Shown here: positions 33,423 through 58,537 of the stretch, one piece after another
Position numbering within the stretch: the first letter of the stretch is position 1
Layout: each line of letters starts with the position of its first letter
From: Candidatus Kryptoniota bacterium
Lineage (GTDB): Bacteria; Bacteroidota; Ignavibacteria; Kryptoniales; JAKASW01
Assembly (NCBI GenBank): GCA_046706365.1
Contig: JBJKPN010000083.1
Span: 7,541 to 71,540 of the forward strand
Direction of reading: 5' to 3'
Length of the DNA: 64,000 bases
Translations under genes and position numbers: made by a program
Notes under the pieces: generated by a model
What the model was told of the DNA's origin: nothing
The model's database searches: none
What the model saw: the letters and a program-made list of their open reading frames with translations, nothing else

Positions 33423-33430
33423 GTGCTCAT

Positions 33431-36407: not shown

Positions 36408-36423
36408 AAAGCAGAGTGGGATT

Positions 36424-37461: not shown

Positions 37462-37494
37462 CAAACCCGATTGAATTTCAAGACGACTTGTCCT

Positions 37495-38562: not shown

Positions 38563-38583
38563 ATTCACTAACAGGGCTGAAGC

Positions 38584-42148: not shown

Positions 42149-44800
42149 GTGACGATATTCAAGAATATATTCAGCCGAAAAAGAGCCGAACCGGTTTCGT
42201 TCAAGGATAAGCTCCATCACTTCCAGCGGCTTCTATTTTCCAACGACGAGGCCCTGAAACTAATGGGGAGTCTCAGCGAAATCATAGTTTCGGGAAAGCC
42301 ATTCTCAAAAGGGGACATATTTCCATTCTATTCCGATATACTGACAAATATCGAACAGGTGACCCGGCACCTTTCAGCCATGTGCGGCGGCAGATACAGG
42401 ACGCTTGCCTCCCGGGTTAAAAAGATTAGGGCAGACTGCGATAGCCAACTCGCGCCCGCTCCGTTTTGTCAGGAAAGGTGGGCGTGTGAAAAGGCCAATT
42501 GTGACGGGTGTGAAAAGCGGTCATATCCTGTCCAGGACTCGCCATACTCTTACCGCGTGGACGAGATAACTTACAACCACACACGTGAAGTCGGCGGCAA
42601 GATGAGCCGGCTTTGCGAGGTACATAACCGGTTGGATATTCCCGTCCCGGACGGATTTTGCCTCACGGCCAAGTGTTTCGAAGACTTCCTATCGCAGGAT
42701 GAATTGTATTCAAAGATTGACGAAGCTATATCGTCCATCGATTTCAACGATAATGCCCAGGTCCAGGAGGCGAGCCGGATCATCCAGGCGCTCATCGTGG
42801 CCTCTCCTATTCCGCCCATCATCGAAAGCACCGTTCTCGAAGAATACGATCGCCTTTCGGCCAGGCGCGGTGAGACTCTTGTAGCCGTCAGGTCAAGTGC
42901 CGTCGGGGAGGACGACCTGCATTTTTCGTTTGCCGGATTGCATTATACCGCACTCAATGTAAGCAGGGCTAATCTGGTCGACGCCTGCTTCGAAGTAATG
43001 ATCTCGAAATACCTGCCGCAGTCGCTGGTCTACCGATATATGATGGGCCTCAGAGATGTCGATATGCCTATGAGTATCGGCTGTATGCAGATGCTGGACT
43101 CCGAAGTCAGCGGGGTTCTCTTCACGAAGGACCCTCTGAGAAACAGGGATGAAATAATCATCCAGGCGGTAAGAGGTCTCGGGACTAAAGTGGTTGACGG
43201 AAGCGTGGAGGCACAGGAGTTCATAGTGGAACATTCTGAAAACTGCAGGATGCTTTCGTTCAAGCCCGGCAACCAGGATTATATGGCGACAGCCCGCCCC
43301 ACAGACGGACTGTACGACGAGCAGGTACCCGCCGAATTGAGACGCAAGCCATGTTTGGATGGGAACCAAATCAGGCAGATCGTGGGATACGCTCTCAGGA
43401 TAGAAGAATACTACGGTTCGCCGCAGGATATCGAATGGGCTATCGACGAGGACGGCAAAGTTTACATTCTGCAGTGCAGGCCTCTCGCGGTTTCAGAAGA
43501 GGCAGGCAACCACGAAGAAACAGGACCTCTATCGGAATCAACAGATGTGGAGCGTACTGCATTAATCGACAAGGGCGAATGCGCCAGTCCGGGAATCGGG
43601 TCGGGCAAGGTTTTCCTTTCAAACAGGTCAAGGGATCTTGTGAATTTCCCAACAGGGGGCGTTCTGGTTGTCAGAAAGACCTCACCGGAGTTGACCAGAG
43701 TTCTCCACAAAGCTGCAGGACTTATCGCGGATGTAGGAAACACGACAGGCCATCTTTCAATCATTGCCCGGGAATTGAAAATACCTGTACTTGTGAATAC
43801 GGGCGATGCTACTTCCCGCCTTTCGAACGACATGCCGATAACTGTCGACGCCGGCGCCCACAAGGTCTACCTCGGACTCGAAACACCTGCCCGGCCAGCG
43901 GATTCAGGAAATGTCAATTCGAGCAGCTTCATGCGGAGCCCGATGCACAGAGTATGGAAAAACATAGCCGAGTCGATAATACCTCTCAACCTGACCGATC
44001 CCGACTCTCCTGAATTCTCGCCGGACCACTGCAGGACATTGCACGATGTGACGAGGTTTGCACACGAGTATGCAATGAGGGAGATGTTCTCGCTTTACGA
44101 AGCCGCTGAGGATCAAGACAGGCAGGCATTCCCATTGAGGTTCCCCGTCCCCCTGGACGTCTACGTCATCGACCTCGGAAACGGACTTCAGAAAATAGAA
44201 GGACGGAAGTTCATCACCCCTGAAGACATCACATCCGAACCGTTCAGCTCACTAATCAAAGGGATGACGGCACCCGGCGTCAAGTGGGCGGGGCCGCTCC
44301 CGATCGACCTCAAAGGCTTTACAAACCTTCTGATGGCAAATATCGTCGATGCCGGAAGAAGCGATAGGGCTCTCGGCGGCAGGAGTTACGCGATCATCTC
44401 AGACTGCTACCTGAATTTCTCTTCGAGACTCGGATATCATTTCTCGCGCCTTGACGCTTACGCGAGCGAAGAGATCAACAATAACTATATCAACTTCGAC
44501 TTCCGGGGCGGCGCCGCGGATCCTTTGAGAAGAGTGAGAAGGGCCAGAGTCATAGCAAGGATTCTCGAGCGCTCCAATTTCTCTGTCACCCTGCAGAACG
44601 ACAATGTCCTTGCAACCATAAGGAAGATCTCCGCTTCGGCTATCTACGAGCTGCTGCACGAGATCGGAAGATTGATGGGTGCGGTACGAAATGCCGACGT
44701 TACGCTGATTACTGACGACAGCATAGAACAATTCGTCAACGCTTTTCTCAGCGGAGACCCGGCTCCCGCTATGCGGTTCACCGAAAGGCCTCCTGGCTGA
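42149..44800 (+). CDS. PpsA-like enzyme: Cys-rich N-terminal extension, PPDK_N ATP-grasp domain, PEP-utilizer swivel phosphohistidine domain, about 310-aa C-terminal domain of unknown function
   Basis: 883 aa. GGKMSRLCEV..IPVPDGFCLT, VAVRSSAVGEDDLHFSFAGLHYTALNV, QDIEWAIDEDGKVYILQCRPL (ATP-grasp). LIADVGNTTGHLSIIARELKIPVLV (swivel His). I recognise no PEP-utilizers_C TIM-barrel motifs in the last about 310 aa. N-terminal motif CQERWACEKANCDGCEK. GTG start. Confidence 0.75.
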   Translation: MTIFKNIFSRKRAEPVSFKDKLHHFQRLLFSNDEALKLMGSLSEIIVSGKPFSKGDIFPFYSDILTNIEQVTRHLSAMCGGRYRTLASRVKKIRADCDSQLAPAPFCQERWACEKANCDGCEKRSYPVQDSPYSYRVDEITYNHTREVGGKMSRLCEVHNRLDIPVPDGFCLTAKCFEDFLSQDELYSKIDEAISSIDFNDNAQVQEASRIIQALIVASPIPPIIESTVLEEYDRLSARRGETLVAVRSSAVGEDDLHFSFAGLHYTALNVSRANLVDACFEVMISKYLPQSLVYRYMMGLRDVDMPMSIGCMQMLDSEVSGVLFTKDPLRNRDEIIIQAVRGLGTKVVDGSVEAQEFIVEHSENCRMLSFKPGNQDYMATARPTDGLYDEQVPAELRRKPCLDGNQIRQIVGYALRIEEYYGSPQDIEWAIDEDGKVYILQCRPLAVSEEAGNHEETGPLSESTDVERTALIDKGECASPGIGSGKVFLSNRSRDLVNFPTGGVLVVRKTSPELTRVLHKAAGLIADVGNTTGHLSIIARELKIPVLVNTGDATSRLSNDMPITVDAGAHKVYLGLETPARPADSGNVNSSSFMRSPMHRVWKNIAESIIPLNLTDPDSPEFSPDHCRTLHDVTRFAHEYAMREMFSLYEAAEDQDRQAFPLRFPVPLDVYVIDLGNGLQKIEGRKFITPEDITSEPFSSLIKGMTAPGVKWAGPLPIDLKGFTNLLMANIVDAGRSDRALGGRSYAIISDCYLNFSSRLGYHFSRLDAYASEEINNNYINFDFRGGAADPLRRVRRARVIARILERSNFSVTLQNDNVLATIRKISASAIYELLHEIGRLMGAVRNADVTLITDDSIEQFVNAFLSGDPAPAMRFTERPPG

Positions 44801-44843: not shown

Positions 44844-45983
44844 CTACGGGACCTCGCACTGCAATTGAACCTCGAGAATGTCTCCTGCCCGATTGTCCCT
44901 CCCTCTCCAAATGAGATAGTTGCCCTGCACTCTGACATTTGAAGCGATCAGATACGTAGCTCCGAAAACATAGTCCGTCGAAATCATGTCACGCATGCTC
45001 ACATCGGGATTATAAGTGTCGAAGCGGGCGGCGATCTGCAAGTCTCTCCCGGCCACATAATAGGCGGCCTGCAAGTACCCTCCCCTGCGACTTATCGCCC
45101 CGTCATTTCCGCCGATATACTCCCCGGAGATTTCGAGTGGAGAGTCAGCATAGTCAAACTCGAGTCCGAAGCGAGTCCTCCTGCCGCTGACAGGAGGGCT
45201 GCCCCACACATCAAAACCGTCGTAGTAGGAAACCCCGACATGTATCTCCCGGACGGGTTGGATCACAATTCTCCCGCAAAAATCCTTTGCGTCGTTCCTG
45301 TCCGGCACGTTTATGCCGGAGCCGTTGAAGACACCTGCGGCATATTCCAGCGAGGACGTGCTGTCGCAGCCGGCAAGTCTTCCGCCGACTTGCACTCCGA
45401 CATCCCGCCCGGACTGATTCCCGGCAACGTCGCCACTTCGGGCCACCAAAGACTCCACAACCTGGGAGCGGTCTATGAAATCGAGTCTGGCCGAAGACAT
45501 CAGGTTTTCCCTGGAAAAGGGAATCTTAAATTGGCCGGCCTTCACACGCAAGAACCGAAACGGCGAATAGTCGATATAAGCGTCGAGCAATCTGGGGGAT
45601 GCGGCAAAATCGGCCTGAAAGAAGTAGGACCATGGCTCCGTCACCCTGCCGGCCAGGCTAAACCTCATTCGCCTTATGTCTGCGCTGCTGATCCGGGACG
45701 TATCACCGTCCGATAGTTGATACCTGAGTTGGACATAACCGCCGAAGTGAGGAAGCAAGAGTGGCGCAGAAGATGGTGGGTTCCTTTTGTCTGTAGTGTC
45801 ACTGAAGGGCGAATCAACTTGAGGGTCCCCCGCTTTGCAACCGACCTCCAGTCCGGAGAGCTGAGAAAAGTCCGGCGCAAGGCGGGCGGGATTTGCCCCT
45901 GCACCGGCAGTTAAGAATGAGATTGCAACCGGGATGATCAGGTTAATTCGCATCGGATGATCCGGGAAGGAGATCGCGGGCAA
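44844..45983 (-). CDS. Phosphate-selective porin O/P (OprO/OprP) family outer-membrane anion porin
   Basis: FFQADFAASPRLLDAYIDYSPFRFLRVKAGQFKIPFSRENLMSSARLDFIDRS is a typical Porin_O_P block. The signal peptide begins at the internal Met (ATG 45953, MRINLIIPVAISFLTAGAGA), which is the likelier start. Confidence 0.8.
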   Translation of the reverse strand: MPAISFPDHPMRINLIIPVAISFLTAGAGANPARLAPDFSQLSGLEVGCKAGDPQVDSPFSDTTDKRNPPSSAPLLLPHFGGYVQLRYQLSDGDTSRISSADIRRMRFSLAGRVTEPWSYFFQADFAASPRLLDAYIDYSPFRFLRVKAGQFKIPFSRENLMSSARLDFIDRSQVVESLVARSGDVAGNQSGRDVGVQVGGRLAGCDSTSSLEYAAGVFNGSGINVPDRNDAKDFCGRIVIQPVREIHVGVSYYDGFDVWGSPPVSGRRTRFGLEFDYADSPLEISGEYIGGNDGAISRRGGYLQAAYYVAGRDLQIAARFDTYNPDVSMRDMISTDYVFGATYLIASNVRVQGNYLIWRGRDNRAGDILEVQLQCEVP

Positions 45984-46021: not shown

Positions 46022-47206
46022 CTACGAGGACGCCACGACGGAGCCCCGAACGACATTTTCCTGCTTTGCCCGTTCTGCCACCCTTGCCTTAACCGCGGCG
46101 ACGTAAATGGCAAGCGGCCTGTACAATAGGTGTCCCCATTTCCCGAACGGCACCTCCACCACGAGCATCGGGACGACGACCGCCATGTGTACGGTATAGA
46201 TAACATATGTAGCCATCGCCAGGTTATTGACGCGGAAAACATGAAGAAGAATGCCCGTGAGCGCCGCCAGGAACAGCAATATCGGAAAAAGCCAGTCGGA
46301 AAAATGGCTGAACCTGTGCATCCCGGTCCGTTTCTTCATTCTGTCGATGATCATCCATATTGTGGCTATCATCAGTACGCCCGTTGCGTAATACCCTAAG
46401 AAGCTCGTCCAGTGAATGCTGCTGTCGTCCACCTGGAACCAGGGCAGGAATACGACGACAAGCGTGAACATGATGCCGTAGCCGCTGACGAGGAAGAGAT
46501 GGCGCAGCCAGTTCTTCATTTCCGTGCCGCTGCCGCAGTCCTTCCATCGAACTTGTGTCACGCCCTGAACAATCATGTACGGAAGCTGAGTGATGTACAG
46601 CCCCAGGGGTATCCTGTCGCCGCGCGTCATAGCCGCGAACATTCTGGCCGCATTTATTAGCAGCAGGAGACCGAGAGTCGCCGCCATAATTCTGTCGCCC
46701 ACATCAACTATCCCCACCGGCGCAAACCGGTCGAGCATAACGGCAGACAACGGCGCAGGTCCGGAACGGCCGAGCAAACCGAAACCGAAATTCGACGGCA
46801 GGATGAACAGCAATACAATCGCGGCCGCCACCGAGGCGAGGATGCCGATCTCCCAATACACGGATCTGTACATGAGCCGGGATAAGCCTGTCCAGTCGTA
46901 CTTCGAAGTGGCGTATCTTCTCATCGCCATCATTGTTTCGCCCGGCTCCGCTTTGCGCGGGCATCTTTCCGAACAATCCCCGCAATAGAAGCATAGCCAT
47001 GGACCGGGGTCTTCAAGCAGCCGGTCTTTCAATCCCCATTGTGCGAGGAGCATGGGTCTCCGGGGAAACGGGTCTTCCTCGGTCGAGAGGGGGCAGACTG
47101 CCGAACATGTTGCACATTGATAACATTTCTTGAGGTCCCCCGCACCGTACTTCTGAAGCTCCCTTATAAATTCACTGTCGGGAGTGACCAGGCTTCTATC
47201 GTTCAT
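46022..47206 (-). CDS. qmoC: Quinone-interacting membrane-bound oxidoreductase subunit C (HdrC-like 2x[4Fe-4S] domain + heme-b membrane domain)
   Basis: 394 aa. CYQCATCSAVCP and CFYCGDCSERCP ferredoxin motifs, followed by about 6 TM helices with conserved His. Same strand as aprBA and qmoAB. Confidence 0.85.
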   Translation of the reverse strand: MNDRSLVTPDSEFIRELQKYGAGDLKKCYQCATCSAVCPLSTEEDPFPRRPMLLAQWGLKDRLLEDPGPWLCFYCGDCSERCPRKAEPGETMMAMRRYATSKYDWTGLSRLMYRSVYWEIGILASVAAAIVLLFILPSNFGFGLLGRSGPAPLSAVMLDRFAPVGIVDVGDRIMAATLGLLLLINAARMFAAMTRGDRIPLGLYITQLPYMIVQGVTQVRWKDCGSGTEMKNWLRHLFLVSGYGIMFTLVVVFLPWFQVDDSSIHWTSFLGYYATGVLMIATIWMIIDRMKKRTGMHRFSHFSDWLFPILLFLAALTGILLHVFRVNNLAMATYVIYTVHMAVVVPMLVVEVPFGKWGHLLYRPLAIYVAAVKARVAERAKQENVVRGSVVASS

Positions 47207-47219
47207 AGTGTTTGTGCGT

Positions 47220-48044
47220 TCAAGGTTTTACACTTTGCGATGTCAGACGGGTGCCTGTCGGCCTGCCGCCGGATTTCACCCGCATCGTCTTGTCACCGAA
47301 CAGGCAGTACTTGAGCCATGTGATGCCGAACTTGAGCAGCTCTTCGTCATCCGATTTGATTTCGTTCACCAATTCCTCGTCCACTTCGAATCTTTCCAGA
47401 AAGCTGCTCCCAAAGACGAATTCTCTGAACTTATCTATGTTATAGCAGACGGTGTAAAACATTTCGAGCTTTGCCGGAGTAAGCTGCTTCTTCTCCTTGA
47501 AGAAATCGTGCAGCGAAAGTTCTTTGAACAGCTCCCCCATTTCCGAATAATGCTCGACCCCCTGGTCTGCTATCCAATCGGCCACCGTCCAGTCCTTCTG
47601 CTGCAAATATCCCTGACAGACCGACTCCTCGATCATGAAATAAAAATCTCTTTCGCCGCCCTCCCCACTCTCCTTCGGAGAGGCCACACCGAGCGGAAAC
47701 ATCCTGCAGGACCACGGTCGATCCTCATAAATGGAGCAGCCCTCGGACCGGACGAACGGACAGGACTTCCTCTCGTCGTCGTTCATCTTCAGCATGACCA
47801 CGGGGTGGTTCTGGCTCTCGTCGATGGGAAGGAACGTGTATTTGTCGAGGAATTCCTGCGATGAGATCTTCAGTCTGTTCTTCATCCGGATGATGTCATA
47901 CGGGGTCAGGAAGATGTTGACGTCGGTGCAACACATGTTGAAGCAGCTGATCCCTTTGTGGCAGCTGAACTTGAACCCGCTTTCCTTTTTCATGTGCGGA
48001 TAATCTTTCAGCACGGCCTCTTTCAGATTCTCAAGCTCTTTCAT
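47220..48044 (-). CDS. YkgJ/UPF0153-family cysteine-cluster (putative Fe-S or Zn) protein
   Basis: 274 aa. FSCHKGISCFNMCC near the N-terminus and CPFVRSEGCSIYEDRPWSCRMFP, the family hallmark. Lies 13 nt upstream of qmoC. Confidence 0.7.
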   Translation of the reverse strand: MKELENLKEAVLKDYPHMKKESGFKFSCHKGISCFNMCCTDVNIFLTPYDIIRMKNRLKISSQEFLDKYTFLPIDESQNHPVVMLKMNDDERKSCPFVRSEGCSIYEDRPWSCRMFPLGVASPKESGEGGERDFYFMIEESVCQGYLQQKDWTVADWIADQGVEHYSEMGELFKELSLHDFFKEKKQLTPAKLEMFYTVCYNIDKFREFVFGSSFLERFEVDEELVNEIKSDDEELLKFGITWLKYCLFGDKTMRVKSGGRPTGTRLTSQSVKP

Positions 48045-48065
48045 GGCAGGCTCTTTCGTATCAGG

Positions 48066-48455
48066 TTATTCAATAATCGAATCCCTTAGCGCATCTTTGG
48101 ACCAGACCGGAAGCGGACTCGCGCTCCCGCTCACAGGGTCTTCACTGTACCTGTACGAGATGTTCTGGTTGAACTGCTTCTTCATCCAGTCCCATCCCCT
48201 TACGAAATAGGGGCATTCGTCGTTGAAGCATACGTTCAGGAAGTCGGCATCCCATGAAGACCCCTCCGGGCAGCGCCACATCTTCAGCGGCTGATGGCAG
48301 TGGGGACATTCCCCGATTTTCTCTTGTTTCATTTCGTTCGCAATGTCAGAAAGAAGTATTTGTGCCAGATTCGGGAGCGACTCCTGCCGCTCCCGAATCG
48401 GCGAACTTGTTGCTAGTTGACTATCTGATGGATTGGTCTGGAGAACACTTCCCAC
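48066..48455 (-). CDS. Small Cys-rich (zinc-ribbon-like) hypothetical protein downstream of aprA
   Basis: ECPHCHQPLKMWRCPEG ... CFNDECPYFVRGWDWM. The track ORF overlaps the aprA 3' end by 43 nt. The internal Met at 48332 is an alternative start. Confidence 0.55.
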   Translation of the reverse strand: MGSVLQTNPSDSQLATSSPIRERQESLPNLAQILLSDIANEMKQEKIGECPHCHQPLKMWRCPEGSSWDADFLNVCFNDECPYFVRGWDWMKKQFNQNISYRYSEDPVSGSASPLPVWSKDALRDSIIE

Positions 48456-50287
48456 TTGTTATCCTTCGGAATCCATTTCATGTTTACGAATACCTTCCAG
48501 TCCTTCTCGTCCATCGAAGGCTTGTCGGAACGGAAGTAGTATCCGGGCCAGCGGGTCTCTTCCCTGAAAAGAATGGCCCTGACGTGAGCTTCCGCCTGCC
48601 ACATTCTATGGACGTTTTCCCAGCATCTCATCAGTTCGTGAAGGTCCGATGCAGCGAGCTTCTCGGAATCGACCTTCAGATACTCGAGGAGTTCCAGGCC
48701 TTTTTCGAGGAGAGCCTTGCTCGTTTTGAATTGGGAGGAGACGCCGCCTGCGTACTCGTCCATGATCTTCTGCAACCTGAACATGAACATTTTCGGCTTG
48801 ATGTAGTTCGGGTTGATTTCCGGATCCGTCGACGACTTACTGAACTGGCCGTACGTGTCGAGAGGCTTCAGGATCTCAGTCTTCAACGCATCGATTTGTG
48901 CCTGATCGTACTTACGGGATTCGGGGTGATCGATGATATAGTCGATAGCAGCTTTTGCGGCTATCCTGCCTTCGGCATGCGAGCCCGAGGAGAACTTGTG
49001 GCTCGATGCTCCGGACGCGTCGCCGGCGCAGAAGATTCCGCTGATGGTGGACATATTGGCATATCCCCAGAAATAATCCGCAGGGGCAAGATCCTTCGGA
49101 CCGCTGACCCATGCACCGGAGGCGCCGGAATGTGATCCGATGAAGTACGGTTCTGCGGCCGCAATCTCGGAAGGCTTCTGCTCCGGAGCCGTATCTGTAC
49201 CGGCCCACAGGATCGCCTGCGAAATTGTCATGTCAAGGAAGTCTTCCCATGCTTCGGCCTCGAGTTCCTTCAGTTTCTTCTTGGCTGCTTTTTCGTCGCC
49301 GGATTCGGACGCGATCTTGTTGATGGCTTCTTCGGTCCTCATGTAAATCGGGCCTTTTCCGTCCATGACGTCGAGCATCATAAGCCAGTTGCGGAGGTTG
49401 GCGGGGACGGGTTTCACCTTCCCGTACGGTATCCATTTCTCGAGTTCGTCCTTCCGCTCTTCCATGTAGTTGCCGCCCATGCCGTTGGTAGCTCTCGACT
49501 TGAAGAGGAGGAACCAAGCTCCGACCGGGCCGTACGCATCCTTGAACCTTACGGGGATGAAGCGTACTTCCTGGCAGGTCATCTCTGCACCGGCTTTCAG
49601 CGTAAAGTAAGCACTCGACCCGGAATTCCACGGCGGATACCATGCGCGACCGAAGCCTTCTCCGGAAGAACGCGGTTTGAAGACGTGTACCGCTCCGCCC
49701 ATCGCCACCAGGACGGCCTTGGCCTTGAACACGTAGAATTTTTCTTCGCGAACGCTGAACCCGACCGCACCTACGCACACATCGCCGTCCATGAGCGGCC
49801 CGACGATGAATACTCTCTCGTAAATGTTTTCCGCGCCGAGCGCGTTCTTTGCTGCTTCAGCTACTACCACCTTGTATGACTCGCCGTTTATCATCAGCTG
49901 CCACCGGCCTTCATGCACGTAGTTGCCGTTTTCATCCTTCCAGATCGGCAGTCCCCATTTTTCAAATAGATGTACCGTCGAATCGACGTGGCGGGCGATG
50001 TTGTACACAAGGTCCTCGCGAGTAATTCCCATCAGGTCGCTCCGGACGTACTTGACATAATCCTCGGCCGTGTTTTTCCCGTCTTTGATGCCGACGTACT
50101 GGTTGATAGCCGAGAGTCCCATCGCAACCGCACCGCTCCGGTCCACCGCGGCCTTGTCGACAAGCGTGACCTTCAAGCCGTGCTGCTTCGCCCAGTGAGC
50201 GGCTTCGACAGCTGCGCCGCAGGCAGCCATGCCGCCGCCGACTATCAGCAGATCCGTCTCCACTACTTCTGTTTTCAAATTAGCCAT
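48413..50287 (-). CDS. aprA: Adenylylsulfate (APS) reductase alpha subunit
   Basis: 624 aa. TDLLIVGGGMAACGAAVEA FAD motif, fumarate-reductase/AprA-like body. Immediately follows aprB. Confidence 0.92.
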   Translation of the reverse strand: MANLKTEVVETDLLIVGGGMAACGAAVEAAHWAKQHGLKVTLVDKAAVDRSGAVAMGLSAINQYVGIKDGKNTAEDYVKYVRSDLMGITREDLVYNIARHVDSTVHLFEKWGLPIWKDENGNYVHEGRWQLMINGESYKVVVAEAAKNALGAENIYERVFIVGPLMDGDVCVGAVGFSVREEKFYVFKAKAVLVAMGGAVHVFKPRSSGEGFGRAWYPPWNSGSSAYFTLKAGAEMTCQEVRFIPVRFKDAYGPVGAWFLLFKSRATNGMGGNYMEERKDELEKWIPYGKVKPVPANLRNWLMMLDVMDGKGPIYMRTEEAINKIASESGDEKAAKKKLKELEAEAWEDFLDMTISQAILWAGTDTAPEQKPSEIAAAEPYFIGSHSGASGAWVSGPKDLAPADYFWGYANMSTISGIFCAGDASGASSHKFSSGSHAEGRIAAKAAIDYIIDHPESRKYDQAQIDALKTEILKPLDTYGQFSKSSTDPEINPNYIKPKMFMFRLQKIMDEYAGGVSSQFKTSKALLEKGLELLEYLKVDSEKLAASDLHELMRCWENVHRMWQAEAHVRAILFREETRWPGYYFRSDKPSMDEKDWKVFVNMKWIPKDNKWEVFSRPIHQIVN

Positions 50288-50303
50288 GTCTTTTCCAACC
50301 TCC

Positions 50304-50747
50304 CTAATGCTTTATTGTGACTACTTCTGGAAGACCCAAAGACTCTGGCTCCGTGAAAAGCACAGGACTCTTGAGGTCGGTATTGCCGGTATGCCACCCG
50401 CCGTCGGGTGCAGCCTTGCCTTCGTCCGTGGTACGAATGGGGAATTTGAATCTTTTCAGTGTGCCGTTTCGGAATTTTATCGTCCACATGATCGAATCGG
50501 TACTTCTCATCGGCGTAACTGTGGCACCGAGTGGGACGAAATCCGCATACCCGCGTACTTCGATGGCCTGCGTCGGGCAGATCTTGACGCAGTTGTAGCA
50601 TTCCCAGCACATTTCAGGTTCGCGGTTGTATGCCTTCATTATGTCCTTGTTCAAGGCCATCAAGTCATTGGGACAGATATACTGACATGCCGTTTTGTCC
50701 AATGCCTTGCATCCGTCGCATTTATCAGGATTCACATAGCTCGGCAT
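50304..50747 (-). CDS. aprB: Adenylylsulfate (APS) reductase beta subunit
   Basis: 147 aa. MPSYVNPDKCDGCKALDKTACQYICPNDLM and CWECYNCVKICP [4Fe-4S] motifs with an AprB-type C-terminal tail. Confidence 0.92.
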   Translation of the reverse strand: MPSYVNPDKCDGCKALDKTACQYICPNDLMALNKDIMKAYNREPEMCWECYNCVKICPTQAIEVRGYADFVPLGATVTPMRSTDSIMWTIKFRNGTLKRFKFPIRTTDEGKAAPDGGWHTGNTDLKSPVLFTEPESLGLPEVVTIKH

Positions 50748-50902
50748 AGAGTTTCCTCCTTTGCTGTTTCATTTAATTGATAGAAATTCGCGAACTTCAT
50801 TTGTCTATAGAGTTTCAGGCTCCAGGACGACTGCGTTTCGCGTAACATCCTCTGTCGACACGATAACGCACTATGCTTCGCACTGGAACCTCTTCATCTC
50901 TC

Positions 50903-52144
50903 CTATTTCTTCAGTTTGTCTGAGCCCTCGCCCGTTGCAAACTGGTGCATCTTGATCTCGACCTTCTGATCCAGTTTGGAATAATAGTCGCGCAGAATCG
51001 CGAGGACTTCCGGGCGGCTGAACTCTGCGGGCACTTCGGAGCCCTCCGACAACGCCTTGCGAAGAGCCGTACCGCTCAGGAACAACCGGTCTTCCTTCTT
51101 GTGCGGGCACGTCTTCATGGATGCCATGCCGCCGCATTTGAAGCACCAGAAAGTCCAGTCGATTGGCAGCGGCTTAAGCAACAAGGCATCGGATGGGATT
51201 TCATAGAAAATTTTCTGCGCGTCGAACGGGCCGTAGTAGTTGCCGACTCCCGCGTGGTCCCTTCCGACGATGAGATGCGTGCAGCCGAAGTTCTGCCTGA
51301 ACACGCCGTGCAGAAGAGCTTCCCTCGGACCGGCATATCTCATGTCGAGCGGATAGCCGCCGCAAAGTACCGTGTCTTTGACGAAATAGTTTTCGACGAG
51401 TACGTCGATGCATTTCGCCCTGACTTCAGCTGGAATGTCTCCGGGTTTCAGTTTCCCGACAAGCTGGTGAATGTACAGCCCGTCGCTGACTTCAAGAGCG
51501 ATTTTCGCCAGGAACTCATGAGAGCGATGCATCGGATTTCGCAGCTGGAGCGCCGCAATCGTTCTCCATCCCTTCTCCGCAAAAATCTTCCTGCTCTCGG
51601 CCGGTCTCTGATAGAGTCCAGCAAACTCAGTCGGGAAATAGCTCTCGGACAGTACTTTTACCGGGCCGGCGACGTTCCATGGCTTCTGCTGCATTACCAT
51701 CTTCACTCCGGGATGCTCCGGGTCTTCCGTTGTGAATACCTGTTTGCATTCGAACCCCTTATCGATCTGGTACTTCTCAGACACCTTCATCGTACCCATG
51801 AGCTCGTCGGTCTCGTCGCTGTACAGTGCGACTTCCTGTCCGGTTTTCAGGGATTTGGCGTCTTCGTCCGTGACCGACATCGTGATGGGAATCGGCCAGA
51901 ACAGCCCGTTAGTCATTCTCATGTCCGAACAGACCCCCTGCCAGTCATCGTGCCCCATGAAGCCGTTAAGCGGGGTGAAGCCTCCGATCCCGAGCATTAT
52001 CATATCACCCGTCTCTCGACTGGTCATGCAAATCTTCTTTAGCCCCGCTGCCTTTCTGGTTTCTTCTTCCTTTTCTTTGCCGCTCAGGAGAAGGACATTC
52101 AGCTTGTCGCTTCCGTGCGGCCGTATTAAAGTAGATTCCGCCAT
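50903..52144 (-). CDS. sat: Dissimilatory-type ATP sulfurylase (sulfate adenylyltransferase, homo-oligomeric Sat)
   Basis: 413 aa. [11 protein letters not shown] (RNPxHxxH) and VGRDHAGVG motifs. No APS-kinase domain. Confidence 0.92.
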
Positions 52145-52434
52145 AACTTTCCTCTCATTTAAGAATGCTACGTTTCTCGGTTTACGAATTAAGATTTACT
52201 TCTGAACACTGTGTCATAAATCGCATTCACGAAGGCACGCTTTGTTGGCCGGCTCGCCCCGACCAATCTCATTTACAATTGCCGGTAGATGTGGCCCGGC
52301 GAAAATCGCTGTCGTAATACGCATATTTACTAACGCACCTTGCATCAACTCGTGAAAAACATATCGGAAACATCAGGTACAATCAACGAGCACCGGGACT
52401 TCTGTAATCGTTCTGTTGCTCGGCCTCCGCGCAG

Positions 52435-54675
52435 TTACATCCCCTTGTACGGGTTGGGGCCCAGTTCCCTGACCTGCTCGACGAAACTATCGAATATCCC
52501 GGGGAGCTTTGTGTATTCGTCGATGGAAAGTGTCAGAAGTTTCACTCTCTCAGGTTCCAGAACAAGTTGTTTCAATTTCTCCTGCACATTCTCCATTCGC
52601 TTGCTCGCAAGCTCGCTCCCCTTGATGAAATGGCACTGATAATCCACACCGAATTTACAACCGAGCATAAGCACGCCGTCAAACCCCTTGGAGAGCGCGT
52701 CGGCAATCCACACCACGTTCACCGATCCGAGGCACCTCACAGGTATAACTCGGATATTCGGATCGTAATGAAGCCTGTACTTTCCGACCGTGTCCAGCGC
52801 AGGGTAGGCGTCGTTTTCGCACATAAAGGCGAGGATCCTCGGCTTGTCCTCATCCTCGTCGGGTATTTCCACTGCCTTGATCATCGAAGAAATCATCGGC
52901 ACGGAATAGTCCTTGAAGGATATTATTCTCTCCGGGCATGCACCGAGACAGATCCCGCAGCGGCGGCATCTGTTGAGATTAGGCAGCGGAGTACCTTTTT
53001 CGTCCTCGTCAAGCGTCCCGAACGGACACTCCTCCGTACAGCGTTTGCACTGCGTACAGCGCTGCAAAAAGAATTCCGGGTAGGATTCGTCCCCCGATCT
53101 CGGATGGACTGCCTTCCCTACCCTGGCCGAATGTATGAGCTGGATCGCCTTAAGTGTAGCGCCGTAAGCATCATTTCTAGCTGTGGAAAAATCCATGGGC
53201 GCGCGAACACTTCCGGCAGCGTAAATTCCCGTCCGCCTGGTCTCATACGGGAAACAAATGTAATGCGAATCTGGAAAACCGTACCTCAGTGTCGGCAGAT
53301 CGGTTCCCTGTCTGTATGTGAGATTCAATATCTTCGCGCCGACTTCGGCCGATTCGGCAGCTTTCTTGCCGTCGAGGGTCTTCTCAGAAATTGTCGCCGC
53401 TGATCCATCCGATTCGATACTTCCCACCAGCGTGGAGGGGACCATGCCGGTTGCCAGTACGACGAGGTCCGATTGTATGCTGATCCTGTTGCCGAGAAGC
53501 GTGTCATCGATGTCGATTCGGACCGAGCCGTCGGTCGAGGCGGTCAAACCGGCGATTTCACCTTTGGTCAGAAAGACGTTCCTTTCATTTTGCACCCGCT
53601 TATAAAACAGTTCGTGTTCGGCCGGCGTGCGCATATCCCGATAAATTATGTAGACCAGGGCTTCCGGGTATTTCTCCCTTATGTAAAGAGCTTGTTTCAA
53701 AGACATTGAGCAGCAAATTGAAGAGCAATACGGCAGGTGTCTTTCGTCGCGCGAACCGGCGCATAGCACGAACGCGACACTCCTGACGGGTTTGCCGTTC
53801 ATCAAGTCACCGTTGATTCCGTTCTTGAAGCGCTCCTCCAGCTGGAATCCTGTAATCACATTCTCGAATTTTCCGTATCCCAACTCGCCCAGCTTGTTCG
53901 GGTCGTACGGCTTCCACCCGGTCGCCTGAACAATTGCGCCGACTGTCAGCAGTTCGGTTCGCGCTCCCCCGTTGATTCTCAACACGACATGAAAGTCGCC
54001 CGGCTGCCCCGATATTTTTTCAATCGTGCAGGATGTGACCGCGGTAATCCTATCGTTCGACTCCACCTCGGAAATCATTCGTTCTATGCCGGAGAATTGC
54101 GGTTCCAGGAAAGGAGGCTCAATGGGAGCGATGCGGTGAAATTTTGCCATCTGCCCGCCGAGATTCTTTTCCTTTTCCGTAAGTACAACCGTGAATCCGG
54201 CTTTTGCAGCGGCAAGGGCTGACGTCAGTCCCGTTGTCCCGCCTCCAACCACGAGAATAGTCTCGTTCACTTCACTCCGCAACGGCTCAGGGAGTTCACT
54301 GTTTCTTACCTTTGCAACTCCCATTCGGAGATAGTCTTCGGCAAGCATCTGCGTGTCGTCGTCATTCGGCTTGTGCGTCCATGCGACATTCTCGCGGAGA
54401 TTGACACGCTCCACCATGACGCCTGAATCAAAACGAAATACATCCGACAGGAATCTTTGCGAACAGGCACCTATGACGACGCGGTTCAGTTTTTCGCTCT
54501 TTATTTCCTCTCTGATAGTCGCGACGCTTTCATCGCTGCATAACCACCCGTCAACCTTACAGACGGGAACTTTACTCTCGCCGGTGGCGAGCTTCGCGAG
54601 CCCGTCGCAGTTCAGCGCCCCGCCGATTCCGCAGCCCGAACAGAGATAAACGCCTACTTTGGTATCTATAGCCAT
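52435..54675 (-). CDS. qmoB: Quinone-interacting membrane-bound oxidoreductase subunit B (HdrA-like flavoprotein with ferredoxin and MvhD-like domains)
   Basis: 746 aa. VVGGGTTGLTSALAAAKAG FAD motif, CTQCKRCTEECP and CRRCGICLGACP clusters, and a C-terminal ILAFMCENDAYPALD...VIPVRCLGSVN MvhD-like domain. Confidence 0.88.
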   Translation of the reverse strand: MAIDTKVGVYLCSGCGIGGALNCDGLAKLATGESKVPVCKVDGWLCSDESVATIREEIKSEKLNRVVIGACSQRFLSDVFRFDSGVMVERVNLRENVAWTHKPNDDDTQMLAEDYLRMGVAKVRNSELPEPLRSEVNETILVVGGGTTGLTSALAAAKAGFTVVLTEKEKNLGGQMAKFHRIAPIEPPFLEPQFSGIERMISEVESNDRITAVTSCTIEKISGQPGDFHVVLRINGGARTELLTVGAIVQATGWKPYDPNKLGELGYGKFENVITGFQLEERFKNGINGDLMNGKPVRSVAFVLCAGSRDERHLPYCSSICCSMSLKQALYIREKYPEALVYIIYRDMRTPAEHELFYKRVQNERNVFLTKGEIAGLTASTDGSVRIDIDDTLLGNRISIQSDLVVLATGMVPSTLVGSIESDGSAATISEKTLDGKKAAESAEVGAKILNLTYRQGTDLPTLRYGFPDSHYICFPYETRRTGIYAAGSVRAPMDFSTARNDAYGATLKAIQLIHSARVGKAVHPRSGDESYPEFFLQRCTQCKRCTEECPFGTLDEDEKGTPLPNLNRCRRCGICLGACPERIISFKDYSVPMISSMIKAVEIPDEDEDKPRILAFMCENDAYPALDTVGKYRLHYDPNIRVIPVRCLGSVNVVWIADALSKGFDGVLMLGCKFGVDYQCHFIKGSELASKRMENVQEKLKQLVLEPERVKLLTLSIDEYTKLPGIFDSFVEQVRELGPNPYKGM

Positions 54676-54679
54676 GATG

Positions 54680-55936
54680 CTAGTTCCCTTTTATGACCTG
54701 GATTGCTTTTAAAACCGAGCCGGTGGCTTCCTGCACAACCGCGGAAACATCTTTCGGCCCTTTGCTCACACCGCAGCCGATGATTTCCGCACTGTCGGAT
54801 ATCAAGAAGCCGTTACTATCTATCGATGAAGGAGGAACAGGCAAACCGTCGACCGCAGGTTTCATTCCCGTTGCAAGCACAACAAGATCGACAGATTCCT
54901 TCAACCGTACGCTTTTCATGGTGTCTTCGGCTTCCACAATGAGTTTGTCTGAAGAGGGGTCTGGCGACACTTTAGCCACTTTTCCCCTGTGAAAATGCAC
55001 TTTCTCGTCCTTCCGTACCTCTCCGTAGAAATCCTCGAAGAACCCGCTTGATCGAACGTCGATGTAATGGATATGGATTTCAGCGTCGGGGTATTGTTCT
55101 CTGATGTACCGCACATGCTTGAGAGACGCCATGCAGCAGACGGACGAGCAGTACTCCAAGTGATTTTCATCCCTTGATCCCGCACATTGAACGAACGCAA
55201 CTTCCCCAACTTCGCCCAGAGTTGACGGCCTGAGTATCCGCCCCTTCGTCGGGCCGTCGGGCGAAGCAAGCCTTTCCATCATCACGTTCGTGATGACATC
55301 CGGAAATTGTCCGAAGCCAAGGACATCAAGTTTATTGGGATCGTATGGTTCCCAGCCGGTCGCCCAAACAACGGCGCCTGCCTCGATCTCTACGACCTTT
55401 TCCTTTTCAGACAAATCTATCGCCCCGTACTTGCACGCGTCAACGCACTTACTGCAGCTGCTCCCCTCGCAGGTAGCCGGGTCTATTACATACCGCTCCG
55501 GGTATGCATTCTGGTATGGAAGGTAAATTGAAGCTGTTTCATCCATGCCGTAGTTGAACTCGTTCTTCCTCGTCTTGGGGCATACGCTCACGCACTCACC
55601 GCATGAGGTGCATTGACTGGTCACAAATCGCGGACTCAGTCTCACGTTTGCCCTGTACTTCCCCGGCTTGCCCGACACATCGATTACTGTTGCTAGGGTC
55701 AGGAGTCTGATCGCAGGGTTTGTCCGCAGGCGGCGGAGATTGATTTCCAGTCCGCAGCTTGGGGGGCAAAGTTTCGGAAAATACTTGTTGAATTGAGTTA
55801 CCTTTCCACCGACATAGGGCCTCTTTTCAAGGAGCGTTACACTCAATCCCGTTTCGGCGGCCTCCACTGCCGCTGTAAGGCCCGCAATTCCGGCGCCAAC
55901 GACAAGGAGGTCCGATTTAATCATGTTCTCATTCAT
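54680..55936 (-). CDS. qmoA: Quinone-interacting membrane-bound oxidoreductase subunit A (HdrA-like flavoprotein)
   Basis: The start is set at ATG 55936 (MNENMIKSDLLVVGAGIAGLTAAVEAAETG), giving 418 aa. The track ORF start (56071) would overlap the upstream gene by 115 nt. CTSCGECVSVCP cluster. Lies 4 nt before qmoB. Confidence 0.88.
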   Translation of the reverse strand: MNENMIKSDLLVVGAGIAGLTAAVEAAETGLSVTLLEKRPYVGGKVTQFNKYFPKLCPPSCGLEINLRRLRTNPAIRLLTLATVIDVSGKPGKYRANVRLSPRFVTSQCTSCGECVSVCPKTRKNEFNYGMDETASIYLPYQNAYPERYVIDPATCEGSSCSKCVDACKYGAIDLSEKEKVVEIEAGAVVWATGWEPYDPNKLDVLGFGQFPDVITNVMMERLASPDGPTKGRILRPSTLGEVGEVAFVQCAGSRDENHLEYCSSVCCMASLKHVRYIREQYPDAEIHIHYIDVRSSGFFEDFYGEVRKDEKVHFHRGKVAKVSPDPSSDKLIVEAEDTMKSVRLKESVDLVVLATGMKPAVDGLPVPPSSIDSNGFLISDSAEIIGCGVSKGPKDVSAVVQEATGSVLKAIQVIKGN

Positions 55937-55956: not shown

Positions 55957-56787
55957 TTATTCGTAGAAGCCAACCACCGATTTTTCCACTTGAATGGACT
56001 TCACTCCCTCGACTTTGGAGAGCACTGTCCTGATGTCGTCCTCCCACATGTGAGCACCGACTCTCGGACAATTTCCTTTTACCACGAGCGTGCCCGAGGC
56101 GGAGTCGGCCTCAATTTCAACATCGCTTCCCCTTGTGCGCGGGGACTGCTGCAGCGACACTTTCGCCTGCGACGCGAGGTAAAGGTTCTTGAGATTGATC
56201 GTAGACTCCGGGGTAGGCTGAAATTCCTTTTGTGAAACCGACCGTACGATAAGGTCTGCAGCAAGGTCGATATTCATCCGTTCCAGGTTTATTACGAGGT
56301 CATAGTTAGAGGGATCCCGCCAGTTTACACCGTAGAGGAACTGGGACCATTTCAGTCTCCGTTCATCGACAACCTTCATGTAAGCCATCGCTTCTTCTCT
56401 GGTCCTGCTACCCTCGGCCATCAGGGTCTTGATCCTGAATTCCGTAGGGGCGGTCAGCAACACCCGCAGAACATACGGAATGTCTTTAAGAAGGAACTGC
56501 GCCAGATGACCGTGATAAACGAGGTCCCCCTTGAGCGCAAAATCAAACAGAGCCGTCTGGAAACAAATCAGGTATTGTTTTTTTCTGTCCCCCATCTTGT
56601 CGAGAAATCCGGGCGACTTTTCGACGAAGGAGAGTTCTCCAAGACCGGTTTCCCTGATACCGAATTTCTCCGCCGCTTTGAGGACGTCCTCTCTCGTGAC
56701 GACCGGACATTTTAGCTGCTCAGATACTTTTTCCGCAAACATTTCCGTCGCACTCAGCGAGCCTCTCGAAATAGTTATGATCGGCAT
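55957..56787 (-). CDS. Cytidylate-kinase-like family (Cytidylate_kin2-type) protein with a C-terminal BON-like domain
   Basis: ATG 56787 is preceded by GGGAGG. MPIITISRGSLSATEMFAEKVSEQL resembles the family N-terminus but has no GxxGxGK P-loop. The C-terminus DVEIEADSASGTLVVKGNCP...VEGVKSIQVE is BON-like. Confidence 0.6.
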   Translation of the reverse strand: MPIITISRGSLSATEMFAEKVSEQLKCPVVTREDVLKAAEKFGIRETGLGELSFVEKSPGFLDKMGDRKKQYLICFQTALFDFALKGDLVYHGHLAQFLLKDIPYVLRVLLTAPTEFRIKTLMAEGSRTREEAMAYMKVVDERRLKWSQFLYGVNWRDPSNYDLVINLERMNIDLAADLIVRSVSQKEFQPTPESTINLKNLYLASQAKVSLQQSPRTRGSDVEIEADSASGTLVVKGNCPRVGAHMWEDDIRTVLSKVEGVKSIQVEKSVVGFYE

Positions 56788-56839
56788 ACGACCTCCCGGC
56801 TGTAAAGCCCATTGATTGCACGACACTTCATCCCGGTAA

Positions 56840-58537
56840 TCACAATCGCGTCTCCGTGCACTCCAACGATTTTTTTACTTTCGAGTACATTAGGTTTCCA
56901 CCTCCGAGGTAGGAGACGTTAGTGTGTCCGGAATTTGAAAAAATCCGCGCTGCTTCATACGCTCTCGGGCCCTTCTCGCAGACAAAGAGGACAGGCTCGT
57001 CTGCCGCGTAATCATCGGCCCTCGAGCGAAGCTCGGACAACGGTATGCGGACCGAGTTCTCGGCAAATGGAAACGCCGCCGTTTCAGCCGATTCCCTCAC
57101 GTCTATCATTGTTCCCCTGAACGAGGCTGCGTCGAGCGGGCTGACGCTGCGAATGCCGTCGATTTCCTGATCAATTGCCATGAATCCCAGATAATTCAGC
57201 GGCGAGACAGGCGATGAATGCGCGGGTGTGTAACAGTGCTCAATGTCGCGCAGGTCCGCTATCGTTCCACCGTGCGAAAGCAGCACGGCAAAAACATCTG
57301 CATATCGCGTTACCTCTCCATCGCCGATTAACTGGAGACCGAGCAACCTGAACCCGGGTTTTTGATAGACGAGCTTCCCGACAAGCAGCTTCTTCTCCGG
57401 GTGGTAATCCGGCCTGTCCGACCAGCAACCGACAATGCTTCCGGTTTCATAGCCAAGCCTGATCGCTTTCTTCTCAGTAAGGCCGACGGCACAGACAATG
57501 TTGTCGAACAATTTCAGCGAAACCGCCCCCGCCGCACCCTCGAAAGACGCATGCTTCCCGGCAATTGAATCGGCGGCAACTCTGCCCATTCTGTTGGAAA
57601 GAGAACCTAATGAGAAAAAGTCGGGAATGCCGGTAACCAGGTTTTCTATTTCCACGCAGTCGCCGGCCGCCCAGATGTTGCTGACGCTGGTCCTCATCTG
57701 CTCGTCAACCAGGATGCCGCCGTGCTTCCCCGTCTCTATGTTCGATTTCCGGGCCAGCTCCGAATTCGGCTTTACTCCGAGACAGTAGAATACATAGTCA
57801 CTCACCAGCCGCTCGCCGCTGTCGAGAGAGATGACCGGGGCTCCTTTTTCGTCCGTGTCGATCCTTTCAACGGACGTCGAAAGCAGGATCCGGACTTTTT
57901 GCGATTCAATAGAACTCTCGCAATAGTTTGAAATTTCCGGATCGAGGAAACCCGGGAGGATCGAACTCTCCTTCTCGACCAGGACGGTTTCAATCCCCCA
58001 TAGCGACGACAGTGCCTCGACCATCTCGCATCCCACGAACCCGCCTCCAATTATGACGGCTTTTCGGATCGCGCCTTTCTCCGCCAGCTTGCGGAACTTC
58101 TGGGCGTCTCTCGGGGTGTGAAAGGGCGAGACAGGTGCAGAAGCCGGGTAAGGAAATTGCGGCAATACCGTTTCCGCACCTGTCGCGATAATCAAAATAT
58201 CATAGGGCACGAAGATAGATTCGCTGCCGTCAAGATCCCTGCACCTTACCTGATTGCTTTGCGCAAGAATTTCTTCGACCACGGTTTTGGTAAGAACTTT
58301 GACACCTTTGACCTGACGGAAGTACTCTTCATCTCTTGGTACGCCGTACGAGGTCGCCGCTAGATCCGAGATCGTATCGATTTCTCCCGCCGCGTACTGT
58401 GGAAGGCCGCAGCTGCTGAACGATATAAACGGGCCCCTCTCGATGATTGTCACGCGGAAATCGAGAGAGAGCCTGCAGAGTCTTGCTGCTGCCCTGCATC
58501 CTGCGGCCATGCCCCCGATAATTACCACGTTAGGCAC
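56840..58537 (-). CDS. CoA-disulfide-reductase-type FAD/NAD(P)H disulfide oxidoreductase fused to a C-terminal rhodanese domain (persulfide/polysulfide reductase-like)
   Basis: 565 aa. VVIIGGMAAGCRAA, the redox Cys in SFSSCGLPQY, a second Rossmann motif VIIGGGFVGCE, and the C-terminal rhodanese active-site loop FVCEKGPRA (CxxGxR). Confidence 0.8.
   Translation of the reverse strand: MPNVVIIGGMAAGCRAAARLCRLSLDFRVTIIERGPFISFSSCGLPQYAAGEIDTISDLAATSYGVPRDEEYFRQVKGVKVLTKTVVEEILAQSNQVRCRDLDGSESIFVPYDILIIATGAETVLPQFPYPASAPVSPFHTPRDAQKFRKLAEKGAIRKAVIIGGGFVGCEMVEALSSLWGIETVLVEKESSILPGFLDPEISNYCESSIESQKVRILLSTSVERIDTDEKGAPVISLDSGERLVSDYVFYCLGVKPNSELARKSNIETGKHGGILVDEQMRTSVSNIWAAGDCVEIENLVTGIPDFFSLGSLSNRMGRVAADSIAGKHASFEGAAGAVSLKLFDNIVCAVGLTEKKAIRLGYETGSIVGCWSDRPDYHPEKKLLVGKLVYQKPGFRLLGLQLIGDGEVTRYADVFAVLLSHGGTIADLRDIEHCYTPAHSSPVSPLNYLGFMAIDQEIDGIRSVSPLDAASFRGTMIDVRESAETAAFPFAENSVRIPLSELRSRADDYAADEPVLFVCEKGPRAYEAARIFSNSGHTNVSYLGGGNLMYSKVKKSLECTETRL

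Follow-up and report, generated by a model that had tools for sequence, protein, structure and literature searches.

The sat-apr-qmo locus of a Candidatus Kryptoniota bacterium has a clade-typical split gene order and a widespread ZnR-YkgJ pair

The closest described counterparts of the gene cluster analyzed here are those of Thermonerobacter thiotrophicus and related Kapabacteria/Ignavibacteria metagenome-assembled genomes (MAGs), which belong to the Fibrobacteres-Chlorobi-Bacteroidetes (FCB) group. In these genomes, the ATP sulfurylase gene sat adjoins aprBA, which encodes adenosine 5'-phosphosulfate (APS) reductase, aprA and qmoC are separated by two conserved hypothetical genes, and qmoC is located apart from qmoAB (PMC6338057; PMC10504309). 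Thiel et al. (2019) described the order sat-aprBA-hyp-hyp-qmoC with a separate qmoAB and reported that all of these genes were transcribed at night under anoxia (PMC6338057). In Supplementary Table 1 of Neukirchen et al. (2023), several Ignavibacteria MAGs are listed with Sat-AprB-AprA, an accession gap of one or two, and QmoC, with QmoA-QmoB in a separate region, and the Chlorobiaceae with Sat-AprB-AprA-QmoA-QmoB-QmoC (PMC10504309). For acidobacterial loci, Hausmann et al. (2018) noted [quoted passage not shown] (PMC6018796). A direct Qmo-Apr interaction, with QmoA and not QmoC as the main Apr-contacting subunit, was demonstrated by Ramos et al. (2012), who also suggested confurcation involving a third partner as the mechanism (PMC3333476). 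The cluster studied here lies in a 64,000-nucleotide (nt) stretch of contig JBJKPN010000083.1 (assembly GCA_046706365.1) of a “Candidatus Kryptoniota” bacterium. This whole stretch is called the window below, and its genes for Sat, AprBA, and QmoABC, with two small genes between aprA and qmoC, are as follows:

54680-55936, minus strand: qmoA, 418 aa from the ATG at 55936; HdrA-like FAD/iron-sulfur (FeS) protein
52435-54675, minus strand: qmoB, 746 aa; HdrA-like, with a C-terminal FlpD/MvhD domain (PF02662, 3.2e-42)
50903-52144, minus strand: sat, ATP sulfurylase (NF003166, 513 bits, cutoff 387)
50304-50747, minus strand: aprB (TIGR02060, 206.4 bits, cutoff 135.65)
48413-50287, minus strand: aprA (TIGR02061, 906.8 bits, cutoff 641.75)
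48066-48332, minus strand: Zn-ribbon open reading frame (ORF), ZnR, 88 aa, four-Cys (PF04606, 28.1 bits, cutoff 26.3)
47220-48044, minus strand: YkgJ/CxxCxxCC-family ORF, 274 aa (PF03692, 41.1 bits, cutoff 23)
46022-47206, minus strand: qmoC (NF038018 over its full length, 238.9 bits, cutoff 300)

According to the ORF listing and profile searches, the order on the minus strand was qmoA, qmoB, a 290-nt gap (52145-52434), sat, a 155-nt gap (50748-50902), aprB, aprA, ZnR, YkgJ, and qmoC; both gaps and the 5.2-kb distance from qmoB to qmoC are exact. An earlier note, made from the sequence alone, had described a split qmo set with this order and spacing, and the coordinates and domains agreed with it. 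QmoA and QmoB are adjacent HdrA-like proteins, each with FAD-binding and Fer4 domains (HdrA2 model, 368 and 424 bits), and the second one carries the C-terminal MvhD/FlpD domain. QmoA was 65-76% identical to the product of the gene upstream of qmoB in other loci with the split order, and the qmoA gene call in the nearest related locus, L090 (loci are cited by L numbers), was also 418 aa. Sat comprised PUA_2 and ATP-sulfurylase domains and exceeded the NF003166 cutoff. AprB and AprA passed both equivalog models, and aprB lies directly upstream of aprA with a 16-nt gap, as expected for the dissimilatory enzyme. All genes of the Sat-AprBA-QmoABC module are present and full length.

Comparison with the known systems showed that the window displays sat-aprBA-hyp-hyp-qmoC, an order of the Kapabacteria type. 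However, in the Thermonerobacter/Kapabacteria MAGs, qmoAB lies at another genomic site and dsrAB-dsrDN..LC come after qmoC, whereas in the window qmoAB lies directly upstream of sat and is itself preceded by dsrMKJOP, a gene for a CoA-disulfide-reductase-rhodanese (CoADR-rhodanese) fusion, and a cytidylate-kinase-like (cytK-like) gene. Neither a distant qmoAB nor dsrAB after qmoC was found in the window, where qmoC is followed by a porin gene and a convergent gene resembling that of pyruvate phosphate dikinase (PPDK). The essentials of the split layout have thus largely been published (Thiel et al., 2019; Neukirchen et al., 2023); the position of qmoAB immediately upstream of sat is a variant that we did not find described, and the difference is minor. 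The Acidobacteriota (PMC6018796; L001, L019-L083) have the same gene set, namely aprBA, ZnR, YkgJ, qmoABC, sat, and the cytK-like, TauE, and PPDK-like genes, with ZnR-YkgJ directly after aprA and a QmoC 59-71% identical to that of the window. They differ in having a contiguous qmoABC after YkgJ and sat downstream, and their QmoA, QmoB, and YkgJ are only 38-56% identical. ZnR and YkgJ may correspond to some of the “syntenic genes 1-4” in Figure 2 of Hausmann et al. (2018). Canonical sat-aprBA-qmoABC clusters (Chlorobiaceae, Desulfobacterota; PMC3333476) share the enzymes and cofactor motifs, but their contiguous qmoABC comes directly after aprA, and ZnR/YkgJ are not located between aprA and qmo. 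The departure from this order, with qmoC in a co-directional, tightly spaced run with two Cys-rich ORFs, had been pointed out by the earlier note and held true. In Gram-positive sulfate reducers (aprBA-qmoAB-hdrBC/hdrD), QmoAB is likewise uncoupled from QmoC at the gene level; however, QmoC is absent there and replaced by soluble HdrBC or HdrD, whereas the window encodes a complete membrane QmoC.

A search for QmoC homologs returned more than 100 proteins with 62-81% identity, whose source MAGs carry the labels Bacteroidetes, Ignavibacteriaceae, Terriglobia, and Korobacteraceae. Species-representative genomes were then scanned with the QmoC alignment, yielding 80 loci on which the window proteins were mapped by tblastn. 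YkgJ was followed directly by qmoC in 28 of the 80 loci, all of them FCB-labelled (Bacteroidetes, Ignavibacteria, or “Ca. Kryptoniota”). Every locus of this set that was long enough (12/12) had the full order cytK-qmoA-qmoB-sat-aprB-aprA-ZnR-YkgJ-qmoC, and the remaining 16 shorter loci, one of which is labelled “Ca. Kryptoniota,” were consistent with the split order. Where full-order loci reached far enough downstream, the same PPDK, histidine kinase, and TauE genes as in the window often followed in opposite orientation. The nearest relative, L090, whose QmoC was 81% identical, had the same order, and the gene caller had missed ZnR there. The arrangement YkgJ-qmoA-qmoB-qmoC was found in 44 of the 80 loci, all from Acidobacteriota except L041, which is labelled only “bacterium.” Since 12 independent species-level MAG contigs and L090 share it, the split order is the normal, fixed layout of an FCB-group clade, and the nearest labelled relatives of the host are “Ca. 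Kryptoniota,” Ignavibacteria, and “Bacteroidetes” MAGs. The synteny comparison of sat, apr, and qmo loci suggested by the earlier note thus revealed a clade-wide order in FCB-labelled loci, and its view of the arrangement as unusual was not upheld: the order is standard in a large set of FCB-group MAGs, which is largely what the note itself had named as a refutation. The split as such adds little, as it has already been described for FCB-group sulfate reducers and is found here to be clade-wide.

The QmoC of the window was aligned over residues 9-367 with positions 1-358 of the 360 positions of NF038018. Its HdrC-like N-terminal domain contains two CX2CX2CX3C motifs for 4Fe-4S clusters (C28/31/34/38 and C72/75/78/82), and its C-terminal HdrE/NarI-like membrane domain has six hydrophobic helices. 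Among the histidines, H236, H340, and H359 were invariant, and H297, H301, and H322 were at least 90% conserved. Orthologs with 64% identity are encoded directly after qmoAB in the 44 acidobacterial loci, the position expected of qmoC in apr-qmo clusters; the QmoC proteins of the canonical sat-aprBA-qmoABC cluster in L088 and of the Desulfobacteraceae-labelled L087 were 43% identical. An exact look-up of the window QmoC returned no record. Because the match is full length, though below the cutoff, and both motifs, the six helices, and the conserved histidines are present, the protein is a complete but divergent QmoC.

The two small genes between aprA and qmoC proved to be far more widespread than the split. 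The succession aprA-ZnR-YkgJ was present in all 67 fetched loci containing aprA, from FCB and Acidobacteriota both, whether qmo was split or not, including the 44 acidobacterial loci with contiguous qmoABC; since the pair also stands after aprA where qmoABC is contiguous, it is not tied to the split. In one complete genome of Zixibacteria and in contigs related to it, the order was sat-aprB-aprA-ZnR-YkgJ-dsrM-dsrK; a distantly related QmoC-like gene (30% identical) lay upstream in divergent orientation, and qmoAB was absent within 10 kb. In L085, ZnR-YkgJ was divergent from sat-aprBA-dsrAB. The unlabelled metagenome contig L088 carried a canonical sat-aprBA-qmoABC cluster followed directly by ZnR (54% identical), with two YkgJ paralogs nearby on the other strand that were 41-47% identical to the window YkgJ over the full length. 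L089 and the shorter L087 showed an overlapping part of the L088 arrangement (qmoBC-ZnR-YkgJ in L087), and in L091 the order was aprA-qmoABC-x-YkgJ-YkgJ with ZnR adjacent. ZnR and YkgJ are separated by 21 nt in the window and overlap by 4-8 nt in the acidobacterial/Zixibacteria loci L001, L084, and L093, and this close spacing or overlap suggests coupled expression; the gap between YkgJ and qmoC in the window is 13 nt. Behind qmoC and ZnR, L088 (10497-11258) and L089 (10353-11120) encode a further protein that is about 255 aa long and has a SEC-C motif; its size is close to that of the Desulfovibrio vulgaris protein DVU0851 (“QmoD,” 25.8 kDa), and a literature search for qmoD/DVU0851 gave only a proteomics table.

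At the protein level, ZnR had four invariant cysteines (C9, C12, C35, and C40) and the conserved motif VCFNDECPYF..GW..SYR..PLPVWS. It passed the Ogr/Delta family PF04606 only marginally, and the match spanned only the four-Cys ribbon. YkgJ scored above the gathering threshold of PF03692 and had a conserved cysteine cluster, with eight invariant cysteines (C28, C34, C38, C39, C95, C103, C113, and C143) in 38 sequences, and a helical C-terminal half. No hydrophobic segments were found in either protein. AlphaFold2 models reached a predicted local distance difference test (pLDDT) score of 90.4 for ZnR and 73.9 for YkgJ, the latter being low around the cysteine cluster. Foldseek searches of both models against the PDB gave no match with E <= 0.001 (best for ZnR, E = 1.6), searching the PDB with a profile from the YkgJ alignment gave nothing meaningful, and a literature search for YkgJ in sulfate reducers found nothing. 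The public ZnR gene call on the window contig is 71 aa (P0241) and lacks the first CxxC pair; the homologs back the 88-aa start at 48332. ZnR and YkgJ are most likely widespread accessories of an uncharacterized kind and not a consequence of the split.

The sequence identities differed between the subunits of the module. Taking the window proteins as single queries, identity to the Acidobacteriota and to L088 was 50% and 52% for QmoA, 54% and 53% for QmoB, 64% and 43% for QmoC, and 77% and 72% for AprA. Thus, QmoA and QmoB were about 50-54% identical to both the Acidobacteriota (L019-L083) and the L087-L089 group. The window YkgJ was closest to a Zixibacteria protein (58-60%), with 43% identity to the acidobacterial one. 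Since QmoC is nearer to its acidobacterial counterpart than QmoA and QmoB are to theirs, the cluster may be a mosaic in which qmoC had a history separate from that of qmoAB; we regard this only as a lead.

Two conserved elements, both on the minus strand, mark possible transcript boundaries within the cluster:

52355-52418, minus strand: conserved promoter-like block, beginning 17 nt downstream of the stop codon of qmoB; CAACA-N4-GATTACAGAA-N10-CGTTGATT-N16-ATATGTTTTT
48364-48402, minus strand: GC-rich hairpin, some 10 nt past the stop codon of aprA; the minimum free energy (MFE) fold has 14 pairs without interruption, MFE -37.6 kcal/mol, z = -5.1 relative to shuffles

The pattern CAACA-N4-GATTACARAA-N10-CGYGTTGATT-N16-ATAWGTTTTT was common to the window, L090, and 11 more split-order loci, and outside of it the qmoB-sat spacers were otherwise unalignable. 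The block occurred once in the window and not at all in 100 shuffles, and a stricter exact pattern had one match each in 12 of the 90 fetched loci, all with the split order, and none elsewhere. Read as TTG-N20-TAnnTTTT, the block resembles the Bacteroidetes -33/-7 promoter type. From this conservation we infer that it acts as a promoter and would give sat a leader of 50-270 nt; on the minus strand, transcription is predicted to begin near 52345-52350, a few nt downstream of TATGTTTT. A GC-rich hairpin with an uninterrupted stem of 10-14 bp was present directly after aprA in 16 of the 17 split-order loci tested, conserved in position and not in sequence, with folding-energy z values from -2.2 to -5.6 against shuffles. 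A clear U-tract accompanied it in L010, L012, L022, and L074, and a weak one in the window. The hairpin is likely an attenuator, a partial terminator, or an mRNA-stabilizing element, for which a step in coverage or a strong 3' end near 48360-48365 and a lower, non-zero coverage over ZnR-YkgJ-qmoC would be predicted. The earlier proposal that qmoC is co-expressed with Apr rather than with QmoAB therefore fared unevenly: the promoter-like block supports a unit starting at sat and separate from qmoAB, whereas the hairpin in 16/17 loci makes co-expression of Apr and qmoC doubtful.

Taken together, we consider it probable, at roughly 80%, that the window contains an intact dissimilatory Sat-AprBA-QmoABC module beside dsrMKJOP, arranged in an order typical of its clade and accompanied by the widespread ZnR-YkgJ accessory pair. 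The locus would then consist of a first unit with dsrMK-x-JOP, the CoADR-rhodanese gene, the cytK-like gene, and qmoAB; the promoter-like block and sat-aprBA; and, behind the hairpin, ZnR-YkgJ-qmoC. The qmoAB genes would be expressed with, or behind, the dsrMKJOP run, and sat-aprBA would be driven by its own promoter. The hairpin would lower the expression of ZnR-YkgJ-qmoC or uncouple it from that of sat-aprBA, with read-through at a lower level. Thus, QmoA, QmoB, and QmoC would be made from different positions, and probably from different transcripts, and the usual complex would be assembled after translation. Electrons would pass from menaquinol to QmoC (hemes b and FeS), on to the flavins and FeS clusters of QmoAB, and through AprB to the FAD of AprA, where APS would be converted into sulfite and AMP, or the reaction would run in reverse. 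ZnR and YkgJ would form a tightly coupled, soluble, metal-binding pair that helps to assemble or mature Apr/Qmo or acts as its small redox adaptor. The split itself would have arisen in a mosaic cluster by neutral rearrangement; compared with the order aprBA-ZnR-YkgJ-qmoABC-sat of the Acidobacteriota, either qmoAB would have moved or sat-aprBA-ZnR-YkgJ would have been inserted.

The earlier note had read the split as a hint of a modified Apr-Qmo complex. In its strongest form, QmoC, AprBA, ZnR, and YkgJ would make up a membrane-anchored APS reductase module, and QmoAB, co-transcribed with dsrMKJOP, would have another role. Such a remodelling would agree with the tight spacing of qmoC with ZnR and YkgJ (gaps of 13 and 21 nt), with the position of qmoAB at the end of a dsrMKJOP-led run, with the promoter-like block between qmoB and sat, with the higher identity of QmoC (64%) than of QmoA and QmoB (only 50-54%) to the acidobacterial proteins, which suggests separate histories, and with the Zixibacteria loci, in which ZnR-YkgJ follows aprA without qmoAB within 10 kb. 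However, ZnR and YkgJ occupy the same position in the 44 acidobacterial loci with contiguous qmoABC and also occur beside the canonical cluster of L088, so that the hint found no support in the comparison. Moreover, this clade has kept qmoAB in conserved form and without exception next to sat, the conserved hairpin stands between aprA and ZnR-YkgJ-qmoC, and published biochemistry identifies QmoA, not QmoC, as the main Apr contact (PMC3333476). A remodelled complex is accordingly improbable.

It is similarly improbable that ZnR is an Ogr/Delta-type zinc-finger transcription factor which, with YkgJ as a redox-sensing partner, regulates apr/qmo and is not part of the enzyme machinery. The PF04606 Ogr_Delta score of 28.1 bits against 26.3 and the divergent orientation of ZnR relative to apr/qmo in L085 and L091, as is often the case for regulators, speak for such a role. 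Nevertheless, the match covers only the four-Cys ribbon, and the Ogr logic does not extend to the most conserved parts of the protein (FNDECPYF..GW..SYR..PLPVWS); for the confident model (pLDDT 90), the PDB offered no significant match (best Foldseek E = 1.6), and the gene stands in line between enzyme genes, in a metabolic context, in 67/67 loci. A chimeric join in the 52.1-52.4 kb gap, whether from assembly or binning, which the earlier note had named as a possible pitfall, has a practically negligible probability: L090 and 12 independent assemblies, produced in different studies, have the same qmoB-sat junction, which rules out misassembly, a conserved sequence block spans the junction region, and the GC content shows no discontinuity.

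Several observations weigh against an intact module with dedicated accessories. QmoC fell short of the curated NF038018 cutoff (238.9 against 300 bits) in spite of its full length. A scan of 44.8-57 kb for generic sigma-70 promoters and intrinsic terminators performed no better than on shuffles; the terminator scan missed the hairpin after aprA because its U-tract is weak, and the roles of promoter and attenuator are putative ones, proposed from sequence conservation. The window does not contain dsrAB, and the pathway may run in the reductive or the oxidative direction. In L092, where the pair is located at 9001-10077, the 9 kb upstream contained no apr or qmo gene, and the contig stops shortly after the pair, whose link to apr may thus not be strict. 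Finally, the functions of the pair are predicted ones, and the marginal Ogr/Delta score leaves some room for a regulatory role of ZnR.

The same-strand cluster extends upstream of qmoA with short gaps, and one further gene follows qmoC on the minus strand:

63114-63992, minus strand: dsrM, which opens the visible part of the co-directional run (NF038037, 509.6 bits, cutoff 300)
61465-63111, minus strand: dsrK (NF045796, 736.9 bits, cutoff 400)
61051-61464, minus strand: 23S_rRNA_IVP-type four-helix-bundle ORF between dsrK and dsrJ (PF05635, 42.5 bits, cutoff 33.8)
60560-60955, minus strand: dsrJ, with three CxxCH motifs (NF038038, 165.5 bits, cutoff 100)
59757-60560, minus strand: dsrO (NF045797, 290 bits, cutoff 200)
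58590-59747, minus strand: dsrP (NF045798, 465 bits, cutoff 350)
56840-58537, minus strand: CoA-disulfide-reductase-like flavoprotein fused to rhodanese (Pyr_redox_2 and Rhodanese; TIGR03385, 299.7 bits, below cutoff)
55957-56826, minus strand: cytidylate-kinase-like P-loop protein (PF13189, 108.9 bits)
44844-45983, minus strand: Porin O/P-family outer-membrane protein, after qmoC (PF07396, 89.3 bits); also in L090

All five Dsr proteins (DsrMKJOP) exceeded their NCBIfam cutoffs. The CoADR-rhodanese fusion, located between dsrP and the cytK-like gene, has the domain make-up of a persulfide/polysulfide reductase. The cytK-like gene is located 20 nt before qmoA in the window and directly upstream of qmoA in 12/12 full split-order loci. 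In L090, a 165-aa paralog of the IVP ORF (L090 780-1277) lies between the cytK-like gene and qmoA, and the IVP ORF looks like a small mobile or insertion-prone gene.

On the opposite strand, downstream of qmoC, there are a PPDK-like gene related to phosphoenolpyruvate (PEP) synthase, a histidine kinase gene, and four tandem TauE genes, and a fifth TauE gene stands further along, past the genes for siroheme synthesis. The PPDK-like protein (42149-44800, plus strand, 883 aa) has ATP-grasp and swivel-His domains and no recognized C-terminal PEP/pyruvate domain, and scored 333 bits against a cutoff of 598. Together with the cytK-like gene (55957-56826, minus strand) and genes for TauE/SafE permeases, of which there are one to five per locus (in the window, 31455-32357 and 35328-39636, plus strand), it accompanies sat/apr/qmo in FCB and Acidobacteriota loci. 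L086, which is related to the Zixibacteria locus L084, also has all three. They could represent a set for the recycling of AMP and pyrophosphate and the transport of sulfite or sulfate. Adjoining the TauE array are genes of the siroheme branch (32745-35331, plus strand) for a precorrin-2 dehydrogenase-like protein and a fused uroporphyrinogen methyltransferase/HemD, and a gene of the 3'-phosphoadenosine 5'-phosphosulfate (PAPS) reductase family is located at 1288-2184 on the minus strand. An arylsulfotransferase (20083-22416, plus strand) and a 2127-aa BNR/sortilin/LamG/CBM multidomain protein (22719-29102, minus strand) both carry a C-terminal sorting domain of the type IX secretion system, which fits with an FCB-group host. 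Rfam and tRNA scans of the window found nothing.

In conclusion, the ZnR-YkgJ pair, and not the split, is the part of this locus worth following up. We tentatively put forward, as a possibility that is more doubtful than not, that ZnR and YkgJ are dedicated Apr/Qmo accessories spanning several phyla, either an assembly or maturation factor or an additional redox partner, which were overlooked since they are not obviously present in the model Desulfovibrio operon. They would then belong to a modular aprBA-ZnR-YkgJ(-qmoC) unit moving between phyla independently of qmoAB, and the split in the FCB group and the mismatch of QmoC and QmoAB identities would be its marks. For these uncultured lineages, the promoter-like block and the hairpin after aprA provide explicit predictions of transcript boundaries. 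There is still debate on the electron route by which Qmo links menaquinol to APS reductase, and ZnR-YkgJ offers a concrete, testable candidate accessory for it; if the proposal is true, the pair may be the long-sought extra redox partner of the Qmo-Apr electron path.

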